A stretch of DNA of 64,000 nt from a virus: IMG/VR virus record IMGVR_UViG_3300047157_000137, positions 5,681-69,680 of that record; one strand, 5' to 3'. The stretch's first letter is position 1, and each line of letters begins with the position of its first letter. Positions 1-62,141 of this stretch are shown here, one piece after another. The notes beneath the pieces are model-generated. The model saw only the letters and a program-made list of their open reading frames with translations, was not told where the DNA came from and did not search any database. The position numbers and the translations under genes were made by a program.

Positions 1-2373
1 ATGGATATAGTTGTTGCATCTGTAGAGATTGATAATGTTATACAAGATGGTGAGGTGTATTATTCTAAACCTCAAAATCAACCTACATATCCTAATCCAG
101 AAACGTTAAATAAACAGTTTAATAAAATTATAGAACAAACATTAGGTGTTGATTCTAAAAAAGTGTTTTCAGATATTGTTGCTAAAAGACGTGGGGCTAA
201 AAAAGGTAGGTTCAGACCGTTTGTTCCACCATCTATGGAAGATTTTCAAGGTTTAATGTATGATCTTTATACTAAAGGAACATTAGGTGAACAACAGATG
301 GCATGGGTTAAAAAGAATTTAATTGATCCATATCAAAAAGGTGTTGCTAACATAGATGTATATAGGCAAACGCTTAAACAAGACTATAAAGCTTTACTTA
401 AAAAGTTTCCTAATGTAAAAAAGAACTTAGGTAAAATAGTTCCTGGTACAGACTTTACACAAGATCAAGCTATAAGAGTTAGTTTGTGGACAAAAGCAGG
501 TTATGAAATACCTGGTATATCTAAACGTGATGCTAAAAAATTAAATGATTTTGTAAACAAAAACCCTGAATTAGGTTTATTTGGCGAAGGCGCATTGCTT
601 GTAAGCAAACAAAATAAGTGGGCTAAGCCAGATCCGTATTGGGACGTACAGAGTATATTGTCTGACTTAAACAACTTTACAAACAACGTAGGTAGACAAC
701 AGTTTTTAGAAGAGTTTAATGCAAATATTGATGCTATATTTTCTAAAGAAAATTTAAATAAGCTAGAAGCATCCTTAGGTAGCAATTGGCGATCTGCAAT
801 AGAAGACTCTTTGTATCGTATGCGAACTGGAACAAACAGGCCATCAGGCGCAGATAAACTTACTAATGCTTTTTTAAACTGGACTAATAATTCTATTGGT
901 GCTATCATGTTCTTTAACAGGAAGTCTGCGTTGTTACAAACCATATCTTCTGTAAATTTTTTAAATTGGAGTGATAATAATCCTGTAAAGGCAGCTATGG
1001 CTTTTGCCAATTTTCCTCAGTTTATAAAAGATTTTGCATTTTTATGGAACTCACCTAAGTTAAAACAAAGAAGAGCAGGTTTAAGAAGTGATGTTAACGA
1101 AGCGGAAATAGCGAACGCAGTTAGAGGTGCTACAAACAAAGCACAAGCAATGATTTCGTATTTACTTAAAATAGGTTTTACACCTACGCAACTTGCAGAT
1201 AGTTTTGCTATTGCATCGGGTGGTGCTACATTTTATAGAAACAGACTAAATACTTATAAAAAAGATGGATTAACAGAAGAAGAAGCTTCTAAAAAAGCTT
1301 TTGAAGATTTTTCTGAAACGTCAGAAGTTAGTCAGCAATCAGCAGATCCTATGTTTATATCTCAACAACAAGCGGGTATATTAGGTAGATTAATTTTAGC
1401 ATTTCAAAATACACCAGCTCAGGTTACTAGGTTGTTTAAAAAAGCTAGTAGAGACTTTATAAACGTTAGAGGCGATCAAAAAACTAACATGTCTAAAATG
1501 GTTTACTACGGCGCTGTTCAAGGATTAATATTTGCAGCTTTACAAAATGCTATATTTATAGGTATGGATGAAGACGATGAAGATGAAGACGTACAAAGAA
1601 GAAAAGAATTAAAACAATCAAGAGTATTACATAGTATGACAGATACTTTATTAAGAGGATCTGGTGTTTATGGAGCTATTGTAGCTACACTTAAAAACAC
1701 TATTAACACTTATTATAGAGAAAAAGATAAAAGTGCTTTTGGAAAAGAAAATGCAAACGTAATATTAGAAGCATTAAATCTTTCACCACCTATAGGTTCA
1801 AAACTTAGAAAAATATCTAATGCTTTAAAGACAGAAGATTTTCAAGCAGATCAAATTGAAAAAATGGGATGGGATGTTACATATAAAGGTAGAGTTATTT
1901 TAAGCCCTAAGTATAATGTCATAGCCTCAACAACAGAAGCTGTAACAAATATACCATTAGAAAGAGCTATGAATGAATTTTTAGCTTTGTCTGAAATGAT
2001 GGATCAAAGAAACTCTACACTACAAAGAATAGCTTTAGCTTTAGGTTATAGAGCTTGGGATGTTGGTGCTAAAATAGAAGAGTTTGATGAAATTAAAATT
2101 GAAGCAAAAGAAGAAAGAGCTGCTGCATCAAAAGAAAGAGCTAGATTAAAAAGAGAAGAAGCCGCTAGAATAAAAGAAGCTAAAAAATACGAAGGTAAAA
2201 CACCTGAACAAATTGTTTACATAAAAAGATATGAAGTTATTATGAAACAAAAGAAAGACGAGCAGGTTAAAACTTTATCAGATTTTGGTTTAACTACAAA
2301 GCAAATTAAAGCTTTAAAGTATGAAAAAGATAGAGCTAAAAAAATATTAGAATTACAAGACGAAACTAAATAA
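1..2373 (+). CDS. C-terminal part of a large virion/ejection-type protein (probably 5'-truncated by the window edge)
   Basis: 790-aa open frame from base 1; helical, charged C-terminus; would follow the internal virion genes at the other window end if the genome is circularly permuted. Confidence 0.5.
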   Translation: MDIVVASVEIDNVIQDGEVYYSKPQNQPTYPNPETLNKQFNKIIEQTLGVDSKKVFSDIVAKRRGAKKGRFRPFVPPSMEDFQGLMYDLYTKGTLGEQQMAWVKKNLIDPYQKGVANIDVYRQTLKQDYKALLKKFPNVKKNLGKIVPGTDFTQDQAIRVSLWTKAGYEIPGISKRDAKKLNDFVNKNPELGLFGEGALLVSKQNKWAKPDPYWDVQSILSDLNNFTNNVGRQQFLEEFNANIDAIFSKENLNKLEASLGSNWRSAIEDSLYRMRTGTNRPSGADKLTNAFLNWTNNSIGAIMFFNRKSALLQTISSVNFLNWSDNNPVKAAMAFANFPQFIKDFAFLWNSPKLKQRRAGLRSDVNEAEIANAVRGATNKAQAMISYLLKIGFTPTQLADSFAIASGGATFYRNRLNTYKKDGLTEEEASKKAFEDFSETSEVSQQSADPMFISQQQAGILGRLILAFQNTPAQVTRLFKKASRDFINVRGDQKTNMSKMVYYGAVQGLIFAALQNAIFIGMDEDDEDEDVQRRKELKQSRVLHSMTDTLLRGSGVYGAIVATLKNTINTYYREKDKSAFGKENANVILEALNLSPPIGSKLRKISNALKTEDFQADQIEKMGWDVTYKGRVILSPKYNVIASTTEAVTNIPLERAMNEFLALSEMMDQRNSTLQRIALALGYRAWDVGAKIEEFDEIKIEAKEERAAASKERARLKREEAARIKEAKKYEGKTPEQIVYIKRYEVIMKQKKDEQVKTLSDFGLTTKQIKALKYEKDRAKKILELQDETK

Positions 2374-5571: not shown

Positions 5572-5785
5572 TTTTTTCTTTAGCTTGTTTTTGTTGTTCT
5601 TTTAATTTTTCTATAGCTTCATCATAACCAGGCATTAGTTTTATTGTTTCAAAAACACCAAAAGCTACATTACTTAATTTTTGTAATTCAGGTATCATTT
5701 GTCTTAGCATACCTTCTAGGTTAGCTATTCTATTTTGCATTTCTATTAATTTACTTTCTTTCATGATATAAAATGTTTTAGCCAA
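5534..5785 (-). CDS. Hypothetical coiled-coil protein (true start probably MKESK)
   Basis: ORF in operon orientation between nrdB and nrdA. Confidence 0.6.
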   Translation of the reverse strand: MAKTFYIMKESKLIEMQNRIANLEGMLRQMIPELQKLSNVAFGVFETIKLMPGYDEAIEKLKEQQKQAKEKIEPEKKFETNVE

Positions 5786-7420: not shown

Positions 7421-7877
7421 TTGTTCTAAGATTTTTTCTCATGATTTCTATCTGCTTGATAGTTTCATCACAGTCTTTTTGGTTTTGAGGTTTAAACAAT
7501 GCTATACTAGGTGAATGTTGTGCTATCCATGATTTAAATAATTTCCATCTAAGTGGAAATGATTCATTAGCTCTACCCTTACATTCAATTATAAAATCTC
7601 TACCTACAAAATCTGGTTTGTATTTTATAGGTAAAATCTTTTTACAACCTCTATCTTTGTATTCACCTTTACCATTAGCTTGTTTTTCAAAGCATATACC
7701 TTCGTAATCAAAACCGTTAAGCAGAGTATAGCTTGTAGGCTCATACTCAGCTACGATTCTAGCTTCTTTCAAAGCTTTGTACATATATACTTCTAGTCCT
7801 GATGCAAACTTAATACCATCGTGTATTACTTTTTTTGCTCGGACTGGTCCTCTTTTACGTTTATAAGACTTCTTCAT
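7392..7877 (-). CDS. T7 endonuclease I-like PD-(D/E)XK nuclease / Holliday junction resolvase
   Basis: FASGLE, YEP, YKPDF and IIECKG motifs. Confidence 0.75.
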   Translation of the reverse strand: MKKSYKRKRGPVRAKKVIHDGIKFASGLEVYMYKALKEARIVAEYEPTSYTLLNGFDYEGICFEKQANGKGEYKDRGCKKILPIKYKPDFVGRDFIIECKGRANESFPLRWKLFKSWIAQHSPSIALFKPQNQKDCDETIKQIEIMRKNLRTNAKKKQTSL

Positions 7878-8145
7878 TTACGTTTATATTAGTTACATCT
7901 TTGGTAAACCTATTGTATGCAACCTCTTCTATCTCATCTTGTAAACATCTTTTAGCTGCTTCAATATATAATAATGCATCCATTAATTCTTCTTGCACAT
8001 CAACCAAGAAACGATTAAGATCTTTTTCTTGGCCTTCAATTTCTTGCATCATTGTAGCTCCATATTTTTTCTGGCCTATTAAACTACGTTGGTCCATCTT
8101 CCTTAGTACTGCCTGTACTATCTTATCTTCTGTTTTAATCTTCAT
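7861..8145 (-). CDS. Small all-alpha NTP pyrophosphatase-like (MazG superfamily) protein
   Basis: RxxxGxKKYG and QEELMDALLY motifs. Confidence 0.5.
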   Translation of the reverse strand: MKIKTEDKIVQAVLRKMDQRSLIGQKKYGATMMQEIEGQEKDLNRFLVDVQEELMDALLYIEAAKRCLQDEIEEVAYNRFTKDVTNINVNEEVL

Positions 8146-8905
8146 CTTTTACAAATGTTCCGTTAATCATTTTACCTGTTCTTTCGTTTATAACTTCATA
8201 TGCAGATTGTATACATGTTTCAATATAAACACCTCGTTGATGAGCTAAGTTAGTTAAGACCACAACCATATCACCAATAGCATCAATAACTTCTGGTTGA
8301 TCATCTTTTAATAAAGCTTTAGCTAACTCACCAGCTTCTTCTTGTAGCTTAACATATTGAGTCATAGTATTTCCTTCTTTATACAAGCCTCTATCGTGTG
8401 CCCAAGTTCTAATTTTATCAAACATTACCTGACTTTTATTATAGTCTGGTATTTCCATGATTATATTAGTTTTAAAATACTCTGCAAAAGCTTTATTATA
8501 TATATAAGATCTATTATCATTATACATAGAAACTTTAGCGTTATCCATTATCCATTGTATTGTTTGCATATCTATGTAGAACTTACCGTGAGACGTATCC
8601 CATTTCATATTCATGTTATCCATAAGATGTCCTTTTAATTTGTTTAAAGGAACTGCAAAAGTTGAAGTTTGTTCTGTTACGTTTATTTTCATTTTCTTAA
8701 AAAGGTTTTTATATTTCTTTCTATCTACTTTATAGCCATAAGACTTTTGAAGTTCTATCTCTTTGTCCGATATATAATCTATATCGTCCGACTGATCAAG
8801 AACTTCATATTCACTAGAGCTATAGCCCTGAATTAATGTAACACGAGTATTAAGATCACGTGTAACACCAATCTTTTTACCTGGTATGTGGTATAAATAA
8901 TACAT
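8135..8905 (-). CDS. Fusion: N-terminal GIY-YIG-like domain plus C-terminal MazG-like nucleotide pyrophosphohydrolase
   Basis: N-term YYLYHIPGKKIGVTRDLNTR...KEIELQ; C-term KLQEEAGELAKA...DAIGDMVVVL...NGTFVK. Confidence 0.7.
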   Translation of the reverse strand: MYYLYHIPGKKIGVTRDLNTRVTLIQGYSSSEYEVLDQSDDIDYISDKEIELQKSYGYKVDRKKYKNLFKKMKINVTEQTSTFAVPLNKLKGHLMDNMNMKWDTSHGKFYIDMQTIQWIMDNAKVSMYNDNRSYIYNKAFAEYFKTNIIMEIPDYNKSQVMFDKIRTWAHDRGLYKEGNTMTQYVKLQEEAGELAKALLKDDQPEVIDAIGDMVVVLTNLAHQRGVYIETCIQSAYEVINERTGKMINGTFVKDED

Positions 8906-8906
8906 A

Positions 8907-9554
8907 TTATGTTATTTTATCGTTATACAAATGTAAGTTATGTGCGAAATGGTAATAAGTACCGATCTCATATCCTGTCCTCTCTGAGACCAATTTTTGT
9001 AACATTGAAAAACAATATTGATCGTTACAGAAACCGTACCAGAGGTCGTTAGAACGCATCACAACTGACATGTTTAGCTTATTGTTTAATACTGTAAACT
9101 GAACTGCATAAGTACACGGCGTGTCTTTAGCATACCAGTGATGTTCTTTACCATCGTATATACTTATTGCTGCGTGTCTAGTGTTAGGATTATCTTTAAG
9201 CTTTGCAACTACATAATCTAATTGGTAGTTACGTTCCCATTGATGACCATAATTAGATCTTACCTCGTTGTTACCGTCAACCATTCGTTGCCATATCTCA
9301 GGTACTTTACCATATATATCTCCTAACTTATCTACGTTAGGATTCCCTGACAAGTACCATTGCCATTCAGCTTCAGCATATGTATGATTCCATTTTCTGT
9401 TTTTAGCCAATATATGATTATCCATAGGGTTTTTAATATAAAAGCCTACGTTAAATAAAGCTTTTGTATTATCAAAATCTATACCATCAAACATTATTGT
9501 TGGATAAAAATAATTAAATGCATCACTTGCTGTTTGAAATTTTGTTTTTATCAT
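8907..9554 (-). CDS. Thymidylate synthase superfamily enzyme, probable dCMP hydroxymethylase/methylase
   Basis: DTPCTYAVQF catalytic Cys; MRSNDLWYGFCND with Asp at the E. coli ThyA Asn177 position; HFAHNLHLY. Confidence 0.8.
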   Translation of the reverse strand: MIKTKFQTASDAFNYFYPTIMFDGIDFDNTKALFNVGFYIKNPMDNHILAKNRKWNHTYAEAEWQWYLSGNPNVDKLGDIYGKVPEIWQRMVDGNNEVRSNYGHQWERNYQLDYVVAKLKDNPNTRHAAISIYDGKEHHWYAKDTPCTYAVQFTVLNNKLNMSVVMRSNDLWYGFCNDQYCFSMLQKLVSERTGYEIGTYYHFAHNLHLYNDKIT

Positions 9555-9810
9555 AATAAAATCTATATAATTCGAATATTTTTTCGTTTAATTGTTTGCC
9601 ATTATATTTAAATGGTGATCGTTTTTTAGCTCCATTAACCTCTACATCGATCCACCAGTAGTAATTATCTTGTTCATTACTTGCTGCCCATGGAGATATT
9701 TTAACACCATTGTTTATACACCATCTATATGCCTCTGTATTTTCATCAGTCCATTCAGGACCCAAGATGTTTACCTTCTTCTTACGCCAAGCCGCACTCA
9801 TTAATCCCAA
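9523..9810 (-). CDS. Hypothetical protein
   Basis: ORF coupled between primase-helicase and the TS-family gene. Confidence 0.6.
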   Translation of the reverse strand: MGLMSAAWRKKKVNILGPEWTDENTEAYRWCINNGVKISPWAASNEQDNYYWWIDVEVNGAKKRSPFKYNGKQLNEKIFELYRFYYDKNKISNSK

Positions 9811-11525
9811 GGCATTGATTCCTCTTCTAACTCAGCCATTTGATGAGGTATGAAACAACCTGATTTATGTTCCCATTTAAAATGAGCTTCAGCTCCATTT
9901 TCACCGAGGTTTTGAAACTTTACTTTAAGTACTTTTGCTTTAACTGTTTTAGCCTCGTAATCTCTATGGACCAGTATACCATGATAACTTGCATCGTACC
10001 ATTCACCACCGCCTTTAATGTTATACATAGTAGGTTCTTCAATTTTTCCATCTTTATCTTTATACATTTTAGTTGGATGAGCAACAATAAATACTAGTAC
10101 ATCATATTTCTTTGCAAAGGTTTCAATCTTAGTTAGATATTCCATCGTGTAACGATTTACATCCTCAGTCTTACAATCAACGTCTCTAATCTTATTAAAT
10201 GGATCTATAACAAGACATTTAATACCTTTACGTTTAACAAGTTCAGCACCCTTACGCAATACAGATTCAAGAGTATAACGTTCCATGTCTATAAAGAAAA
10301 AGTTATCATTAACGTGATCAGCAACTTGATTCCATTTGTCTGTACCTATATCATTACGTGTTGGCATGTCTTGCCAAACTTTTCTCATTAGTTTATGAGC
10401 ATGTAAGTATGTAGGTGCATTCTCAGGCGATGCAAACGCTGTTTTCCATTGGTAATTGTTATTATAACCAACTACCATCTGATCAACGAAATCTGACTTT
10501 CCGCTAGATGGTATGCCAGTAACAGTGATAAACTGGCCAGTATAAGTACTAAAAATATTGTCAAAGTTAGGTATGCCAATTTGATACCCACGCTTGAAGC
10601 CATTTTTAACAAAGTCTGTAATTTCATCTTCTATATCTTTAAATGTTGTGACGTTTTCTAATGGAACAGGTCTTGATTTTATAATACGCTCAGACAAAGC
10701 TTCTTTACCGTATTTAATTAAGTAATCATTTGCATCCTTACATTCTTCAAAAGTTGCTAAGAAACAAACTTCAGCACCAAGACGTCTTATTAACTCTTGT
10801 TGTAAAGCTTGACCAGGTTCATCATTATCAACTGCAAGTATTATTTTTTCTTTATCTTCAAAATAATCTATACAGTTATCTAAATAATCTAAGTTGTTAG
10901 AATTTAACGTCGCACCATTAGGTACAGATATAGCGTTTTTAATTCCAGCTTCATGTAAAGCTAGTACATCCATCTCACCTTCAGTTATAACACACTCTTT
11001 ATAACCTATTATACTATTTATATTATAAAATACTTTTTCAGCACCTTTATATAACTTAAAGTTTTTACGGCCATCTCTGTATTTAACATTGATAAGCTCA
11101 TCACCCATTATATAATTAAACTGAATTGTATTCTCGGACTTGCCGGTCTGTGGCATAAACTCAGGACCCTCTGTGACCATAAGATCGTCGAGGGTTGACT
11201 GAGATATTCCACGTGACTCAAACCATTTAAAGACCTTAGACGTTATTTGTTTTGGGTCTACAACGTTTAACGAATCAGGACGTATATATGTCTTCTCAGA
11301 CGATCCTTTACGTTGATACGTATGTAATTGAAATGATGAATCACAATGATGACAAGTACCCAAACCACGTTCCCAATCATAACTAGCACATTTAGCCTTT
11401 TGATTTTTAGGTTTCCTATCATGTGAACACAGGGGACAAATCCCCTGCGTTTTTCCTACATCTAGTTTATGTTGGTTAAACTGGTCGATTAAAAATCCAT
11501 TAATCTCCGTGTTGTTTACTTGCAT
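9801..11525 (-). CDS. Primase-helicase (T7 gp4/Twinkle-like)
   Basis: Zn finger CPLC...CHHC; TOPRIM ITEGEMD and AVDND; Walker A GIPSSGKS; LVIDP; VAHP. Confidence 0.92.
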   Translation of the reverse strand: MQVNNTEINGFLIDQFNQHKLDVGKTQGICPLCSHDRKPKNQKAKCASYDWERGLGTCHHCDSSFQLHTYQRKGSSEKTYIRPDSLNVVDPKQITSKVFKWFESRGISQSTLDDLMVTEGPEFMPQTGKSENTIQFNYIMGDELINVKYRDGRKNFKLYKGAEKVFYNINSIIGYKECVITEGEMDVLALHEAGIKNAISVPNGATLNSNNLDYLDNCIDYFEDKEKIILAVDNDEPGQALQQELIRRLGAEVCFLATFEECKDANDYLIKYGKEALSERIIKSRPVPLENVTTFKDIEDEITDFVKNGFKRGYQIGIPNFDNIFSTYTGQFITVTGIPSSGKSDFVDQMVVGYNNNYQWKTAFASPENAPTYLHAHKLMRKVWQDMPTRNDIGTDKWNQVADHVNDNFFFIDMERYTLESVLRKGAELVKRKGIKCLVIDPFNKIRDVDCKTEDVNRYTMEYLTKIETFAKKYDVLVFIVAHPTKMYKDKDGKIEEPTMYNIKGGGEWYDASYHGILVHRDYEAKTVKAKVLKVKFQNLGENGAEAHFKWEHKSGCFIPHQMAELEEESMPWD

Positions 11526-15735: not shown

Positions 15736-16590
15736 TTACTCATAGTTACGAATAGTTTTAAACAATGGGTGTCTGTAACTACCGTACTGAGTACGTTCGA
15801 AATAAGTAAACGTAGCTCGTTTGCCTATGTAGTCATGAATATTTTTAAGTATATTAGCTAGATCTTTGTAGTTGTAGCCTTTACCTGGAGGACAACCAAA
15901 CTCTATACCATCATCATCTTGCATTAGAAACTTGCCAAGAGTACCTTCACGTTTACCTTTGCCGATTTCGTAACCTATAATTGTAGCTTCGGTGTCATTA
16001 AAGTCTTTAAACTTTTGTAAGTTGTAAGATCGTTTTTGCTGATAAGGTTTGTCTAGACGTAGTATAGAGCCTTCGTAACCGTTATTTAGATTATACTGAT
16101 GTCTTAATTTTGCAGAGTCTTTAGAATTAACTAGAGTAGTTTCTACGTATTTGATACATAGTTGTACATATCAGAACAAGCTAGTTGATCAGATCTGTAA
16201 CTGTAAGGCTTGTCCATAACTGTTTCTATATAATCATAGCAATGAAACTGTATTAGCCTCTCAGCTTCAGCTTTATCAGCATCAGTTGGTTTTTGTTTTC
16301 TAACTAATGATATAATCTTTTCGAAAGTCATCTTTAAGATCATGGTTGTATAATTCACCGTCGAGTACGACATCTACATTAGCATAGTCAAAGAAAAATT
16401 TGTTTAACGATAGTTTAATGTGTTCAAGATTGTGAAATTCTTTACCTGTACGTGAGAAACATCTGATGTTTTCTTTGTCGTCGACGTATATAACACACCT
16501 TACGCCGTCAAGCTTAGGTTGAATGTATACTTTCTCGGACCAGTCGACAGGTTTTTTGTCTACTTTGTATGCGAGCATTGGTTTAATCAT
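15736..16590 (-). pseudogene. lig: ATP-dependent DNA ligase interrupted by two compensating indels (likely sequence error)
   Basis: QPKLDGVR and DGELY in the first frame; FHCYD in the +1 frame; GYEGSILR, LQKFK and OB-fold RHP back in the first frame; extra base near 16325, missing base near 16158. Confidence 0.85.
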
Positions 16591-16859
16591 AATTTATCTA
16601 TTTTATTTTGAATTTTAGTTATTTTATTTTTCATTATCTCAGCTTTTTCATACTCTTCATCATCAATAAATTTGTTTTGAAGTGTACATAATCTGCCGAG
16701 TTCATCTTGTAGTATTTCACGTTCAGACAATTTACCTTCATATATAGGCTCGTCTTCTACGTATTTAACACCATAAGTTGCTGTTTCAGGGTTAATAAAT
16801 TCCTGATATAGATCGAATTTAATTCTATCTAATAGTTTTTGATATTGTCTTTCTGTCAT
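16587..16859 (-). CDS. Hypothetical protein with C-terminal UVR-like motif
   Basis: FIDDEEYEKAEIMKNKI resembles a UvrB/C coiled-coil motif. Confidence 0.55.
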   Translation of the reverse strand: MTERQYQKLLDRIKFDLYQEFINPETATYGVKYVEDEPIYEGKLSEREILQDELGRLCTLQNKFIDDEEYEKAEIMKNKITKIQNKIDKL

Positions 16860-36084: not shown

Positions 36085-37650
36085 ATGTCAAATGCAATTG
36101 TAAAGAATCTGAACTTTGGTTTAGATGCTAAAAACAATGTGTTTGCTGGTATTACAAAACTTACACAAGCCGTTAGCTCCACTCTTGGGGCTAGTGGTAA
36201 GTGTGTTATGTTAGAAGATAGTACGGGCAAACCTATTATTACCAAAGATGGTGTTACTGTAGCAGAAGCTATTACACTATTAGACCCAGTAGAAAATATG
36301 GGTGCCACCTTGTTAAAAGAAGCAGCAAGAAAAACTGTTAAAGAAGCAGGTGATGGTACAACAACAGCAACAGTGTTAGCTCACGCTATCCTACAGGAAG
36401 CTTATAAAGTTATAGATAAATTAAATTCAAGAGATTTAAAAAATGGTATAAATAAAGCTACTAAAAATGTTTTAGAATACTTAGAAAACATATCTATCCC
36501 TGTAAAAGAAAAAATGATTGATCAAGTAGCTACAATATCTACTAACAATGATTCTAAATTAGGTAAAATAATTGCTGAATCTTTTAGAGCTGTAGGTGAT
36601 CATGGTGTTGTAATGATGGAATCTAATGATTTACCAGAAACAACATTTGAAATTATTGACGGAGTACAATATGAACAAGGTTTAAAAAATATTCATTTTG
36701 TAACTAACAAAGAAACTAACACAGCTGAATTAAGCAATCCATTAGTTTTATTAGTAGAGTCAAAAATTGAAAACATTAGAAAAATACAAAACGTACTTGA
36801 ATACGTTATAAAAAATAATAAATCATTATTAATAATAGGTGATACTGATCAACAAGTTTTATCAGCATTAGCTATGAATAAGATTAAAGGTAATATTAAA
36901 GTTAATTTAATTGACGCACCACATTATGGTATATATAAAAAAGAAATATTAGATGATCTTTCTTTATTAACAGGTGCAACTATAATTAACGAAGACTTAG
37001 GAGATGATATTGATTTAATTGATGTAGAACAACTAGGCCAATGTAAAAAATCTATAAGTACTGAATCTGAAACTATATTACAAGTTGGAAGTTTATCTGA
37101 TGAAGTTAAAGATTTAATAAAAGAAGTAGAAGGTAAAATTAAGAAAACAAAAAACCCACAGCTAATTCAAAAATATGAAACAAGATTAGCTAGGTTGTCT
37201 GGAAAAGTTGCTATTGTAAAAGTAGGCGCTAATTCAGAAGTTGAGTTACAAGAAAAAAAAGATAGAGTAGAAGATGCTATATGTGCTACAAAAGCTGCTA
37301 TCAAAGAGGGTATAGTACCAGGAGGTGGTATTGCTCTTCTTAATGCTGCACAAAATATAACTAAACCTTCTTTAGCTGAAAATGTTTTATTACAAGCTAT
37401 TAAACAACCTTTTAAAACTATATTAAATAATGCGGGTATAGAAAAATATGACGTAGAAGATTTACATAGTGAAGGTGAAGGTTTGGATGTTGTTACAGGA
37501 AATATGGTAAATATGATTGAGTCAGGGATTATTGATCCTTTACTCGTCACAAAAAGTGCATTAAGAAATGCAGCTTCTGTAGCCACTACTATTTTATCAA
37601 CCGATTGTGTAATTAATAATCTTAGAATTAATGAAGGCAATAGGGAATAA
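36085..37650 (+). CDS. groEL: Chaperonin GroEL (Cpn60), phage type
   Basis: ITKDGVTVA, AGDGTTTATVLA, KDRVEDA, GIVPGGG, GIIDP; no GGM tail. Confidence 0.97.
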   Translation: MSNAIVKNLNFGLDAKNNVFAGITKLTQAVSSTLGASGKCVMLEDSTGKPIITKDGVTVAEAITLLDPVENMGATLLKEAARKTVKEAGDGTTTATVLAHAILQEAYKVIDKLNSRDLKNGINKATKNVLEYLENISIPVKEKMIDQVATISTNNDSKLGKIIAESFRAVGDHGVVMMESNDLPETTFEIIDGVQYEQGLKNIHFVTNKETNTAELSNPLVLLVESKIENIRKIQNVLEYVIKNNKSLLIIGDTDQQVLSALAMNKIKGNIKVNLIDAPHYGIYKKEILDDLSLLTGATIINEDLGDDIDLIDVEQLGQCKKSISTESETILQVGSLSDEVKDLIKEVEGKIKKTKNPQLIQKYETRLARLSGKVAIVKVGANSEVELQEKKDRVEDAICATKAAIKEGIVPGGGIALLNAAQNITKPSLAENVLLQAIKQPFKTILNNAGIEKYDVEDLHSEGEGLDVVTGNMVNMIESGIIDPLLVTKSALRNAASVATTILSTDCVINNLRINEGNRE

Positions 37651-37891
37651 TTTAATAGTAAAACCTTACAAAGCTGGGGTTACAAAAACCAAAGGTGGTT
37701 TATTTTTAGCAGAAAAACAAAGAGAAGATATAAGATATGAAGAGGGAGTTGTTTTGTCAGCTGGATCAAACTCTGGTGGTATAAAAGAAAATGATGTCAT
37801 TTATTTTGATAAAAATAATTCACATCAAATAGAGATAAAAAAAGAAATTTACAAGGTGGTAAATATAAATCATGTTGTAGTTGTGTTATGA
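37631..37891 (+). CDS. groES: Co-chaperonin GroES (Cpn10)
   Basis: KTKGGLFL mobile loop; GVVLSAG; IKENDVIYF; adjacent to groEL. Confidence 0.88.
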   Translation: MKAIGNNLIVKPYKAGVTKTKGGLFLAEKQREDIRYEEGVVLSAGSNSGGIKENDVIYFDKNNSHQIEIKKEIYKVVNINHVVVVL

Positions 37892-60533: not shown

Positions 60534-62141
60534 ATGGCAGCAACAATTGAAGTAAACTACTTTAACACATTCTGGTTAAAAAAAATCAAGAGTATTACAG
60601 ATGTTGCTTCTGGCTCGTCAAGTGCTTATGTTTCTAACACAGGAACTACTTTTGTAATAGGATCTTCTCTTTCAGATACTCAAATGAATATAGGACAAGA
60701 AGTTACTTTTACATATACTAGCGGATCTGGTGACACAATAAATTATTCTAGTTATGTGGTATCAAAAATTAGTGGTACATCTTTTGTCGCTGGTGCAGCA
60801 CCTAATCCAGCTGTAACAGGAACACCTACTATTTCTTTTGGTCCAATAATTAATTTCGATAATATTCCACCAGCGGAACCTAATTATCCTAGCGCTCCAG
60901 CAAATGATTGGTATATAGAAGAAGCTAGAATACGAGGAGGTTACAACAATGTATCTACAGATTATGGTGTTAAAGCTTATTTAGTAGAAGACACATTTGC
61001 ACAACAACATAGAATTAGTTCACTTATATATTCTGGTATATTTAATTCAAGAACTGGGGTAAACGATACAAATCAATTTTCAGTAGGTGAAAGCATAACT
61101 AGATCACTAGATCCAGCCAACGGTTCTATACAAAGACTTTATGCTGAAGATACTAACTTAATTATATTTCAAGAGGATAAAGTAAGTAAAGCTTTAATAG
61201 ATAAAGATGCAATATATACGGCTGAAGGATCAGCGTTAACAACGTCTGGTAGATTAGTTATAGGACAGGTTGTTGCTTATGCAGGAGAATATGGTATATC
61301 TGAAGATCCTTATAGTTTTGCTGTTTATGGTTACAGAAAATATTTTACAGATAGAAAAAGAAATTGTGTGTGTAGATTATCTATGGACGGTATAACTGAA
61401 ATATCTAGCTACGGTATGCATGATTTTTTTAGAGATGAACTAACTAAAAGTGGTATTAGAGTTGTTGGAGGATGGGATATACACACTAAAAATTATGTAG
61501 TTTCTATACAAAGCACAGTAAATTCATCATACATTACAACTTCTTATGACGAAGACGTTAGAGGTTGGACAAGTTTCTTTAGTTATAAACCCACCTATAT
61601 GGTTAGTTTAAATAGTGATTTTTATACTTTTAATGATGGTGATTTATGGAGACATCATTCAGGAGATAAATATTCATATTTTTACAACGAGGTTGATTCA
61701 AATGGAACTCCTGTAGCACAAGATTCTTATGTAACTTTAGTGCTAAATACACAACCATCTGTTGTTAAAAACTTTAAAACTTTAAACTACGAGGGTAATA
61801 ATGGTTGGGAACTTGGTTCTATGATTGCTAGCTCTAGTGATCAAACGTTGCCTATAACTAAATATGAATTTAAAAATAATTTAGCTGATCTTGAAACACA
61901 ATTTTGGTCTAACTCATTTAAAAAGAAAGAAAACAAATTTTTTGCTAATTTAATAAATAACTCTTCAGCAACTAATGGTGAAGTTTTATTTGGCCCAGAA
62001 GTTTCTGGTATAAAAGGTTTTTGGTCTACTGTTAAAATGAAAATAGATTGGAATACTACAGTTAGTTCAGATACTAATTATTATACAAATAAAAAAGAAT
62101 TATTTTCAGTGTCATCTGATACTGTAGAATCATCATACTAA
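60534..62141 (+). CDS. Tail stabilisation/nozzle-like protein, part 2
   Basis: GEYGISEDPYSF, RLSMDGITEIS, GWTSFFSYKP, KNFKTLNYEG, KKENKFF beta-propeller-type motifs. Confidence 0.65.
   Translation: MAATIEVNYFNTFWLKKIKSITDVASGSSSAYVSNTGTTFVIGSSLSDTQMNIGQEVTFTYTSGSGDTINYSSYVVSKISGTSFVAGAAPNPAVTGTPTISFGPIINFDNIPPAEPNYPSAPANDWYIEEARIRGGYNNVSTDYGVKAYLVEDTFAQQHRISSLIYSGIFNSRTGVNDTNQFSVGESITRSLDPANGSIQRLYAEDTNLIIFQEDKVSKALIDKDAIYTAEGSALTTSGRLVIGQVVAYAGEYGISEDPYSFAVYGYRKYFTDRKRNCVCRLSMDGITEISSYGMHDFFRDELTKSGIRVVGGWDIHTKNYVVSIQSTVNSSYITTSYDEDVRGWTSFFSYKPTYMVSLNSDFYTFNDGDLWRHHSGDKYSYFYNEVDSNGTPVAQDSYVTLVLNTQPSVVKNFKTLNYEGNNGWELGSMIASSSDQTLPITKYEFKNNLADLETQFWSNSFKKKENKFFANLINNSSATNGEVLFGPEVSGIKGFWSTVKMKIDWNTTVSSDTNYYTNKKELFSVSSDTVESSY

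Follow-up and report, generated by a model that had tools for sequence, protein, structure and literature searches.

A thymidylate synthase-like gene and a MazG-domain gene form a candidate 5-hydroxymethylcytosine module in a marine phage

Results

Gene content and conservation of the locus

We analyzed a 64,000-nt stretch (the window; positions 5,681 to 69,680 of viral record IMGVR_UViG_3300047157_000137) of the complete, 69,680-nt genome of an uncultured marine phage. A cassette on its minus strand comprises a thymidylate synthase (TS)-like gene (8907..9554; PF00303), which encodes a 215-aa protein of the thymidylate-synthase fold that we predict to be a dCMP 5-hydroxymethylase (5hm-dCMP synthase), and a MazG-domain gene (8135..8905; PF01503 and PF03819), which encodes a three-domain protein of 256 aa. 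Two small ORFs flank this pair on the same strand: o95 (9523..9810; phrog_5945, 8e-5), a 95-aa ORF of no known function that lies directly upstream of the TS-like gene and overlaps its start by 32 nt, and o94 (7861..8145), which encodes a conserved 94-aa protein matching only PHROG families without known function and which shares 11 nt with the end of the MazG gene. No terminators were found inside the cassette by a promoter and terminator scan, the counts of which were at chance level.

The phage belongs to a widespread group, with relatives in 555 viral contigs, and the stretch was found in seawater and virome runs from 14 studies; the phage collection that we searched contained no near-identical DNA. 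Matches in genome collections were metagenome-assembled bins only, with mixed labels, and thus give a weak host clue; the host probably lies in Bacteroidota. The MazG gene follows the TS gene in all 76 related loci that have room for it, and the adjacency extends to loci on other gene backbones (seven loci, six of them with room: L022, L052, L055, L056, L059 and L065; L058 stops at the TS gene). Directly after the MazG gene comes o94 in 69 of 75 related loci with room, and homologs of o95 occur in 44 of 80 related loci, with synteny kept in many relatives.

The TS-like protein carries the residues of a cytosine-specific enzyme

Membership of the TS-like protein in the thymidylate synthase superfamily is clear from its PF00303 match (E = 1.1e-24; 87.5 bits against a curated cut-off of 24.3), the only such match in the genome, and from its match to phrog_160 (2.9e-40). 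Source records name it 'thymidylate synthase', and its top PDB sequence matches are MilA (1.1e-19) and T4 dCH (1.8e-17), with classical TS enzymes scoring lower. The protein contains two diagnostic stretches, DTPCTYAVQF and MRSNDLWYGFCND, which we aligned (MAFFT) with E. coli ThyA and T4 gp42 sequences, both from annotated entries. In this alignment the final Asp of the second stretch shares a column with E. coli Asn177 and T4 Asp179, bearing out the first-pass annotation, which had recognized a dCMP-specific Asp in this gene and had quoted the E. coli and T4 motifs correctly. In E. coli numbering, the protein has E58, W80, Y94, R126, D143, C146, T147, R166, S167, N168, D169, D177, H207 and Y209; in its own numbering, Cys147 and Asp178 align to T4 Cys148 and Asp179. 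Asp144-Thr-Pro-Cys147 places an Asp at position −3 of the catalytic Cys, and a Ser-x-Tyr motif is present as Ser100-Asn-Tyr102. Only five residues follow the H-x-Y motif, so that the C-terminal tail of TS is absent.

This signature (the catalytic Cys, Asp177, Asp at −3, Thr147, Ser-x-Tyr and Asp169) is kept in all 200 sequences of a set made up of our protein, 79 locus ORFs and 120 database proteins, and in every one of them 4–18 residues follow H-x-Y, against 55 in E. coli ThyA (length 264, Tyr209). Asp177, shared by every member, is thus no chance residue. Because all 200 are close relatives (at least 66% identity), this conservation shows constraint rather than function.

Published rules help to interpret these residues. 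Passages of Park 2019 (PMC6400193) give an Asp at −3 of the Cys, a Ser-x-Tyr motif and the lack of a C-terminal tail as the signature of hydroxymethylases; they link an Asp or Glu at −3 with Ser/Thr-x-Tyr to water activation, report that a D145N variant is inactive and describe MilA substitutions A176S and K133R that move preference toward dCMP. In our alignment to MilA, these last two positions are Ser and Arg, that is, dCMP-type residues. The following residue features of a dCMP hydroxymethylase are found in the TS-like protein: the Cys/Asp pair, the Asp at −3 with Ser-x-Tyr, the missing tail and the deoxyribose-preference residues. According to passages of Lee 2026 (PMC13326640), Leu at position 143 goes with methyl products and Asp or Glu with hydroxymethyl products, and D169N marks 5-hydroxy-dCMP synthases. 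Our alignment agrees with these published rules, in that position 169 is Asn in RB69 gp48, whereas the methylase of Xp12 combines Asn at −3 with the long ThyA-like C-terminus.

The reading of the TS-like gene as encoding a cytosine-specific enzyme thus holds on residue evidence. The first-pass annotation had left the modified base as 5-hydroxymethylcytosine (5hmC) or 5-methylcytosine (5mC); because the hydroxymethylase hallmarks are present and Asp169 is kept, we narrow this and favor 5hmC as the more likely product base. The retained Asp169 in turn argues against a 5-hydroxy-dCMP synthase.

A phylogeny (15 rows, MilA not among them) gave a partial answer. Xp12 clusters with E. coli ThyA (100/98), apart from the clade of our protein, and the TS-like protein of Bacteroides phage BF503P2 is the sister of that clade (94/94); T4 gp42 sits on a long branch, and the tree does not establish a link between it and the clade, with 7 of 12 inner branches below 80.

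One neighboring gene, not two, carries a MazG domain

The first-pass annotation had described two MazG-like genes after the TS-like gene, and one of them stands up. The ORF at 8135..8905 carries a genuine MazG/PRA-PH pyrophosphatase domain, fused to two N-terminal domains. The C-terminal nucleoside-triphosphate pyrophosphohydrolase domain (residues ~155–256, about nt 8138–8443) matches PF01503 best (6.3e-6; 27 bits against a cut-off of 21.3) and also PF03819 (8.7e-5; 23.2 against 22), over residues 183–243. The protein further matches phrog_1992 and phrog_715, both 'MazG-like pyrophosphatase', and PDB 1vmg by sequence search (E = 0.0029). An AF2 model (pLDDT 86.9) retrieved MazG, DCTPP1 and S-2L MazG-like chains in Foldseek at target-normalized TM scores of 0.6–0.75, and all 30 sequences compared share the acidic residues E189, E190, E193, D208 and D212. 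Profile, fold and acidic metal-binding residues on two helices hence all place the protein in the MazG/PRA-PH group.

A middle domain (residues ~74–145) carries no family assignment. The N-terminal domain (residues ~1–60) may be T5orf172/GIY-YIG-like: it has an Atlas feature score of 0.97 to clusters in which 11–12% of members carry PF10544, and its direct match to PF10544 (E = 0.086) falls below the cut-off. We treat this assignment as only a lead.

The same annotation had offered these genes as candidates for removing dCTP in the manner of T4 gp56. One protein, that of 8135..8905, has a MazG-type pyrophosphatase domain, and similarity of this domain to gp56 was undetectable (BLASTP E = 0.82). 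A search for the domain type gave 1100 phage records, in the majority from phages of Streptococcus (329) and Staphylococcus (308), and the type is common in phages without known modification. Because gp56 similarity is undetectable and the domain type is so widespread among phages, the likeness to gp56 is an analogy and not homology, and both points count against a 5hmC pathway here.

The second gene that had been read as MazG-like, o94, is not supported as such by Pfam, the PDB search, Foldseek, hhalign or the Atlas. No Pfam family matched o94, and none of its 33 close or 77 distant relatives examined matched a MazG family; its PHROG matches are unknown-function families only. The best hit of a PDB sequence search had E = 0.13, an hhalign comparison with the MazG gene alignment gave a probability of 0.6%, and the Atlas held no named family for it. 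AF2 predicts a two-helix hairpin, and Foldseek returned no PDB matches for this model, the pLDDT of which is only 68.9. The o94 family is large, with 3404 cluster representatives at E ≤ 1e-3.

The rest of the genome

The first-pass annotation had noted that no glycosyltransferase or dNMP kinase is recognizable in the window, and this now extends to the whole 69,680-nt genome (Pfam and PHROGs). Neither a kinase nor a transferase turned up when 56 window ORFs and a 2666-aa ORF were scanned with Pfam and PHROGs, a set that covers ORFs of about 60 aa and longer, and PF02223 and PF13521 had no matches in the genome. Whole-genome family searches likewise gave no matches at E ≤ 1 for dCMP deaminase, ThyX, carbamoyltransferase, AAA_28, DNA polymerase A and B, thymidylate kinase, GT1, GT2 or T4 beta-glucosyltransferase, and the Pfam scans of ORFs showed no DHFR. 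Among the early genes, a Walker A motif occurs in the primase-helicase only. T4 and RB69 each encode their own kinase and the cluster of Bacteroides phage BF503P2 includes a kinase-like gene, and the missing kinase counts against a 5hmC pathway here.

Some cytosine-containing hexamer palindromes are strongly depleted (observed versus expected, uncorrected for how many hexamers were examined: GGATCC, 1 versus 9.1; GGTACC, 4 versus 15.5; GAATTC, 3 versus 11.1; GATATC, 0 versus 18.8). Full protective cytosine replacement could relax such avoidance, so its persistence might also count against the pathway.

Discussion

Our preferred interpretation, which we consider probable, is that the TS-like and MazG genes form a module of two enzymes that adjusts the nucleotide pool so that 5-hydroxymethyl-dC DNA can be made. 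The MazG-domain protein, the class of which is evident from profile and fold, would hydrolyze a dNTP, most plausibly dCTP, to the monophosphate, so that the competing canonical precursor would fall and dCMP would become available. The TS-fold enzyme would then bind dCMP via the Asp at the Asn177 position, with Cys147 attacking C6, one carbon coming from methylene-tetrahydrofolate and Asp144 activating water; the residues are in place, and the chemistry is modeled on T4 dCH. Because there is no C-terminal tail to close the site for hydride transfer, the product released would be 5-hydroxymethyl-dCMP and not a methylated nucleotide. Host kinases, or an unrecognized phage kinase, might raise 5hm-dCMP to the triphosphate, and, because the phage lacks a polymerase of its own, we suppose that the host replicative polymerase would incorporate 5hm-dCTP. 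As no transferase is recognizable, the base would stay plain 5hmC unless an ORF of unknown function decorates it. On the residue evidence, then, the phage DNA probably contains 5-hydroxymethylcytosine, a phage strategy that is already known.

A bolder form of this proposal is that a mobile two-gene cassette, made up of the short dCMP hydroxymethylase and the T5orf172-like/MazG fusion, suffices for unglycosylated 5hmC in very common ocean phages that have no kinase, polymerase or transferase of their own, with host kinases and the host replisome doing the remaining work and the o94 family supplying a missing accessory factor. We regard this version as possible but doubtful.

The strongest competing explanation accepts that 5hm-dCMP is made and holds that virion DNA is not simply 5hmC substituted, either because substitution is partial or absent without a phage kinase or because 5hmC is further decorated. 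The genome-wide lack of a recognizable kinase or transferase and the avoidance of cytosine-containing palindromes would fit such a state, and there are candidate decorators in o94, o95, the two N-terminal domains of the MazG protein and other unassigned ORFs. Of these, o94, a member of a large uncharacterized family, shows tight linkage to the cassette. Related cassettes have extra enzymes beside them: BF503P2 has a carbamoyltransferase, VPE25 an annotated beta-glucosyltransferase and L022 a PLP-dependent enzyme. Against partial or absent substitution, the translationally coupled TS-MazG pair is strictly conserved in hundreds of genomes, which implies that its product is used, and uptake of 5hm-dCTP by the E. 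coli replicative polymerase is documented in a passage of bioRxiv 10.1101/2024.12.05.627091. On balance we judge this explanation unlikely.

An Xp12-type dCMP methylase, which would yield 5-methylcytosine DNA, is considerably less probable. The TS homolog of Xp12 (a dCMP methylase; 5mC DNA) shares Asp177 with our protein and has a nucleotide hydrolase gene adjoining it, N177D alone converts a TS into a dCMP methylase (work cited in a passage of PMC8670742), and Xp12-like phages likewise have a nucleotide pyrophosphohydrolase gene beside the TS gene (a passage of PMC9206674); the Pamexvirus gene order is DHFR, dCMP deaminase, TS and nucleotide pyrophosphohydrolase. However, our protein has Asp at −3 of the Cys in place of a hydrophobic residue or of the Asn found in Xp12, it has Thr after the Cys in place of Pro, and it lacks the full ThyA-like C-terminus that Xp12 retains. 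Xp12 also groups with ThyA in the tree, and the dCMP deaminase and DHFR that accompany the Xp12 gene have no match in our searches and Pfam scans, respectively.

Two further readings seem to us highly improbable. A flavin-dependent 5-hydroxy-dCMP synthase would resemble RB69 gp48 and DLP3 gp80 (Lee 2026, PMC13326640), which share Asp177, an acidic residue 143 and a short C-terminus with our protein (RB69 gp48 also ends soon after its H-x-aromatic motif) but have Asn in place of Asp169 (D169N) and lack E58, W80 and G173. Our protein retains all of these, with Asp169 in 200 of 200 sequences against Asn in RB69 gp48, and no glycosyltransferase was found in the genome. An ordinary thymidylate synthase converting dUMP to dTMP would accord with the database names and with the fact that this is the sole PF00303 match in a genome without ThyX; yet no NCBIfam TS equivalog comes anywhere near its cut-off (best, 74.2 bits against 327), and Asn177, His147 and Leu143 are replaced by Asp, Thr and Asp in a protein that has also lost the tail.

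Least probable is a MilA-like enzyme that hydroxymethylates the ribonucleotide CMP. MilA of Streptomyces rimofaciens (PDB 5b6d and 5jnh) is the best-scoring solved sequence and shares Asp177, the Asp at −3 and the Thr after the Cys, but it is a 325-aa enzyme of antibiotic biosynthesis with ribose-specificity residues Ala176 and Lys133, and our gene has the dCMP-type residues and lies in a phage replication module.

If the 5hmC reading is right, a very common marine phage group would have non-canonical DNA, with relevance for host restriction and Type IV defense, as well as for the biases that affect library preparation and enzymatic or bisulfite methods. It would also change how 'thymidylate synthase' annotations in viromes are read, and the stripped-down gene set raises the question of the minimum needed for cytosine replacement.

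The principle behind our reading, that an Asp177 TS homolog with a PRA-PH/MazG neighbor marks cytosine-modified phages, is already published. In MetaGPA (Yang et al. 2021, PMC8670742), the two TS positions with the strongest association to contigs of cytosine-modified environmental phages were 177 and 147, and PF01503 co-occurred with TS. Its modules place the same two Pfam domains next to each other, TS (Asp177) and PRA-PH (PF01503), and differ from E. coli at the same TS positions 177 and 147 as our protein does; they often come with a dCMP deaminase and a carbamoyltransferase, unlike our genome, which has neither.

T4 gp42 (PDB 1b49, 1b5d, 1b5e, 6a9a and 6a9b) shares with our protein the TS fold, the catalytic Cys and the equivalent of Glu58, together with Ser-Asn-Tyr-Gly, the Asp at −3, the Thr after the Cys, Arg-Ser-Asn-Asp, the base-specificity Asp and the missing tail, and the two are identical at E. 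coli positions 143, 147, 168, 169 and 177. Overall they are ~28% identical in the alignment, and our protein is 31 residues shorter, ending five residues after H-x-Y. Unlike T4, our phage has no gp1-type kinase, alpha- or beta-glucosyltransferase, gp56 homolog or polymerase of its own. The gp56 dCTPase/dUTPase and the MazG protein would have only their proposed role in common, namely dCTP removal and dCMP supply, and the latter is fused to further domains.

The closest cultured homologs are found in the Bacteroides phages BF503P2, BF486P2 and their relatives, and the BF503P2 TS-like protein is 47.7% identical to ours and has the same signature. MazG is absent among the eight neighbors scanned in BF503P2, the cluster of which adds a carbamoyltransferase (PF16861, 3.4e-34), an AAA_28 kinase-like gene, dut (dUTPase) and a second TS-like gene. 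These are the genes of the 5hmC-carbamoylation pathway that has been published.

A predicted T4-style enzyme for cytosine

Most likely, the cassette pairs a predicted 5hm-dCMP synthase of the T4 type with an NTP pyrophosphatase of the MazG type. It sits in a tightly packed early operon that runs leftward in a 69,680-nt IMG/VR genome rated complete by CheckV, of which the window spans bases 5681–69680; there, a primase-helicase (9801–11525) is followed by a 95-aa ORF of no assigned function (9523–9810), the 215-aa thymidylate synthase (TS)-like ORF (8907–9554), a 256-aa ORF starting 1 nt past the TS-like stop (8135–8905), a 94-aa ORF overlapping the latter by 11 nt (7861–8145) and a DUF1064 protein (PF06356; 7392–7877). 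Two ORFs farther down are, by eye, candidate ribonucleotide reductase subunits.

Both motifs quoted in the first-pass annotation are present in the 215-aa ORF, which matches PF00303 in Pfam (E = 1.1e-24) and 'thymidylate synthase' families in PHROG. It scores far below every cut-off of the NCBIfam thymidylate-synthase equivalogs (best 74 bits vs 327). Its best sequence match among solved structures is the CMP hydroxymethylase MilA (1.1e-19), followed by T4 dCMP hydroxymethylase (1.8e-17), thymidylate synthase A 1bko (3.4e-15) and 264-aa chains of thymidylate synthase, 2tsc for example (about 1e-9).

We aligned this query with E. coli ThyA, T4 gp42, the 5-hydroxy-dCMP synthase RB69 gp48 and the TS homologue of Xp12, which produces 5-methyl-dCMP, taking the references from annotated records. 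In E. coli numbering, the query retains E58, W80, Y94, R126, C146, R166, S167, D169, G173, H207 and Y209 but differs from ThyA at four positions, with Asp143, Thr147, Asn168 and Asp177, the last confirming the cytosine-type residue that had been claimed. It is identical to T4 gp42 at 143, 147, 168, 169 and 177, shares a Ser-Asn-Tyr-Gly segment with it and ends 5 residues past H-x-Y.

Park et al. (2019, PMC6400193) give as the hydroxymethylase signature an Asp or Glu three before the catalytic Cys, together with Ser/Thr-x-Tyr and no C-terminal tail, describe D145N as inactive and quote A176S and K133R as switching MilA to dCMP; the query carries Ser and Arg at those two MilA positions. Lee et al. 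(2026, PMC13326640) tie dCMP specificity to N177D, Leu at 143 to methyl products and Asp or Glu there to hydroxymethyl products, with D169N marking flavin-dependent 5-hydroxy-dCMP synthases, and Yang et al. (2021, PMC8670742) name 177 and 147 as the best-discriminating TS positions. Our alignment conforms to the published residue rules: RB69 gp48 has Asn169, in contrast to Asp169 in the query, and the Xp12 homologue carries Asn three residues ahead of the Cys and retains a ThyA-like C-terminus, whereas the query has Asp at −3 and a short end. Some Asp177 homologues make 5mdCMP by experiment (2024, bioRxiv 10.1101/2024.12.05.627091). We assign the TS-like ORF with considerable confidence as a predicted 5hm-dCMP synthase. 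A homologue in Agathobaculum phage AB434P2 (2881–3543) is annotated 'deoxyuridylate hydroxymethyltransferase' yet carries the cytosine-selecting Asp, and going by that residue the annotation may name the wrong base.

The TS-like family is very common in marine data. A protein search gave at least 8000 candidates, Tara being among their source labels, and relatives are encoded in 555 viral contigs, of which the best 80 were analysed as loci. In a set of 200 sequences (the query, 79 complete locus ORFs and 120 database proteins, leaving out locus L017, which ends at a contig edge), E58, W80, Y94, Ser100, Asp143, C146, Thr147, Asn168, Asp169, Asp177, H207 and Y209 are present in all 200, Arg126 and Arg166 in 199 each, and 4–18 residues follow H-x-Y in 200/200; because all sequences are at least about 66% identical, this conservation reflects constraint within one clade. 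The phylogeny suggested in the first-pass annotation, a 15-row ML tree with MilA left out, gave a partial answer: the query clade (96/95) adjoins a 226-aa TS-like protein of Bacteroides phage BF503P2 (94/94) and Xp12 pairs with E. coli ThyA (100/98), and T4 gp42, with a long-branch flag, has no settled placement.

The neighbouring genes

Both downstream genes had been read as MazG-superfamily members, which stands for the 256-aa protein but lacks support for the 94-aa one. Residues 183–243 of the former match PRA-PH and MazG, both over the Pfam cut-off, and its PHROG matches are 'MazG-like pyrophosphatase'. The AF2 model (30 sequences, pLDDT 86.9) has three domains, and Foldseek matches the C-terminal one to MazG-type chains, with whole-chain E-values of only about 1e-2 and target-normalised TM scores of 0.75 for S. 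solfataricus 1vmg, 0.65 for the cyanophage S-2L MazG-like enzyme and about 0.6 for human and mouse dCTP pyrophosphatase DCTPP1. Five acidic residues (E189, E190, E193, D208 and D212) are invariant in 30/30 sequences. No sequence similarity to T4 gp56 was found, and a GIY-YIG/T5orf172-like N-terminal domain is only a lead.

This MazG domain type is found in 1100 phage records, with phages of Streptococcus and Staphylococcus the most numerous, so by itself it does not imply base modification. The MazG gene directly follows the TS-like gene in 76/76 loci with at least 800 nt downstream, most of which form one syntenic phage group and hence are not independent; in six (L022, L052, L055, L056, L059 and L065) the flanks are unlike the window's backbone, and a seventh other-backbone locus, L058, stops at the TS gene. 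This linkage argues for a functional pair. After selecting for cytosine modification in phage DNA of sewage and coastal samples, Yang et al. (2021, PMC8670742) report PF01503 together with TS in modified contigs, and in Xp12-like phages a nucleotide pyrophosphohydrolase adjoins the TS homologue (PMC9206674). Two loci on a different backbone, L022 (2728–6014) and L056 (2660–6014), have several ORFs of about 300 aa and one of 186–195 aa before the TS–MazG pair; nearly all are of no known function, with one PLP-dependent enzyme (PF00291, 4.8e-8) and a DUF6378 protein, and they may be hypermodification genes.

The 94-aa protein is unsupported as a MazG enzyme: it has no Pfam family match, hhalign against the MazG gene indicates no relation (0.6%), its AF2 model, a two-helix hairpin of modest confidence (pLDDT 68.9), has no Foldseek match in the PDB, and 0 of 77 scanned relatives match a MazG family. 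It is a widespread, uncharacterised small protein, with 3404 cluster representatives in a profile search (E ≤ 1e-3); its Arg-Ser, Gly, Lys-Tyr-Gly and Gln-Glu-Glu-x-Met-Asp pattern is invariant. Its gene adjoins the MazG gene in 69/75 loci, the six exceptions being on other backbones.

A proposed route from nucleotide to modified DNA

PF00303 is matched once in the whole genome, and family searches at E ≤ 1 gave no match to dCMP deaminase, ThyX, carbamoyltransferase, AAA_28, thymidylate kinase, GT1, GT2, T4 beta-glucosyltransferase or DNA polymerase A or B. When the larger ORFs were scanned with Pfam and PHROG, neither a kinase nor a transferase came up, and the only Walker A motif among the early genes is that of the primase-helicase; as far as these two collections reach, the earlier remark that no glycosyltransferase or dNMP kinase is recognisable thus holds genome-wide. 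Because no such phage enzymes were recognised, phosphorylation of 5hm-dCMP and its incorporation into DNA would fall to host enzymes or unrecognised ORFs, and this is the weakest link of the pathway reading. The E. coli replicative polymerase incorporates 5hm-dCTP (2024, bioRxiv 10.1101/2024.12.05.627091). On balance, we somewhat favor a complete pathway through to 5hmC DNA.

Hexamer palindromes give a second reason for caution about this pathway. GATATC is absent from the genome (0 observed vs 18.8 expected, Markov model), and GGATCC (1 vs 9.1), GGTACC (4 vs 15.5), GAATTC (3 vs 11.1; all uncorrected) and TCTAGA are likewise depleted genome-wide. These depletions look like footprints of host restriction systems, and since the palindromes contain C, restriction pressure at such sites has not vanished.

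Genome and host

The stretch or part of it occurs in 20 of the 24 runs listed (14 studies of seawater, marine or viral metagenomes); the run data, including 6 RNA libraries, are assembled contigs and uninformative on modification or transcription. The best match to the primase-helicase is in Cellulophaga phage phi10:1 (42.6%), and 4/9 closer matches in the genome collection come from Bacteroidota bins; we infer a Bacteroidota host. A 535-aa late protein (60534–62141, +) has the C-terminal domain of the crAss-virus muzzle protein (PF25729, 1.3e-9), a hint that this marine phage group may be related to crAss-like phages.

The late region also encodes GroEL (PF00118, 3.6e-64) and GroES (PF00166, 2e-10) homologues (36085–37891, +), and the genome carries an ERF recombinase, a PDDEXK exonuclease and a sigma-factor-like gene. 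A 2666-aa ORF entering from outside the window (genome 53–8053, window 1–2373, +) has no Pfam match at E ≤ 0.01. The ATP-dependent DNA ligase gene (15736–16593, −) is split over three reading frames: an adenylation part (16300–16593, −; PF01068, 5.8e-9), a middle piece (16143–16373, −) and an OB part (15736–16170, −; PF14743, 2.2e-5). Because other runs' contigs differ here by 1-nt insertions at 16157/16158 and 1-nt deletions at 16323/16327, the frameshifts may be confined to this assembly or variant. In MetaGPA (Yang et al. 2021, PMC8670742), the families linked to modified contigs include ligase domains.

Comparison with known systems

Published work already covers the sequence rules, the association of TS with PRA-PH and a screen of IMG/VR for Asp177 homologues. 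Among cultured phages, 2186 records match the TS-like protein, all at <60% identity, the best being Bacteroides fragilis phages (47.7%). The window is without the extra genes seen in two cultured clusters. In the gut phage BF503P2 (2639–8669), the TS-like homologue shares a cluster with a 611-aa carbamoyltransferase (PF16861, 3.4e-34; PF02543, 2.4e-13), a kinase-like protein of the AAA_28 family (4e-8), dut and another TS-like gene with Asp177, a set that fits the route to 5-carbamoyloxymethylcytosine described by Yang et al. (2021, PMC8670742); its carbamoyltransferase and kinase-like gene are both annotated 'hypothetical'. In Enterococcus phage VPE25, the homologue carries the same signature, and after it come a dUTPase and a gene annotated as a beta-glucosyltransferase.
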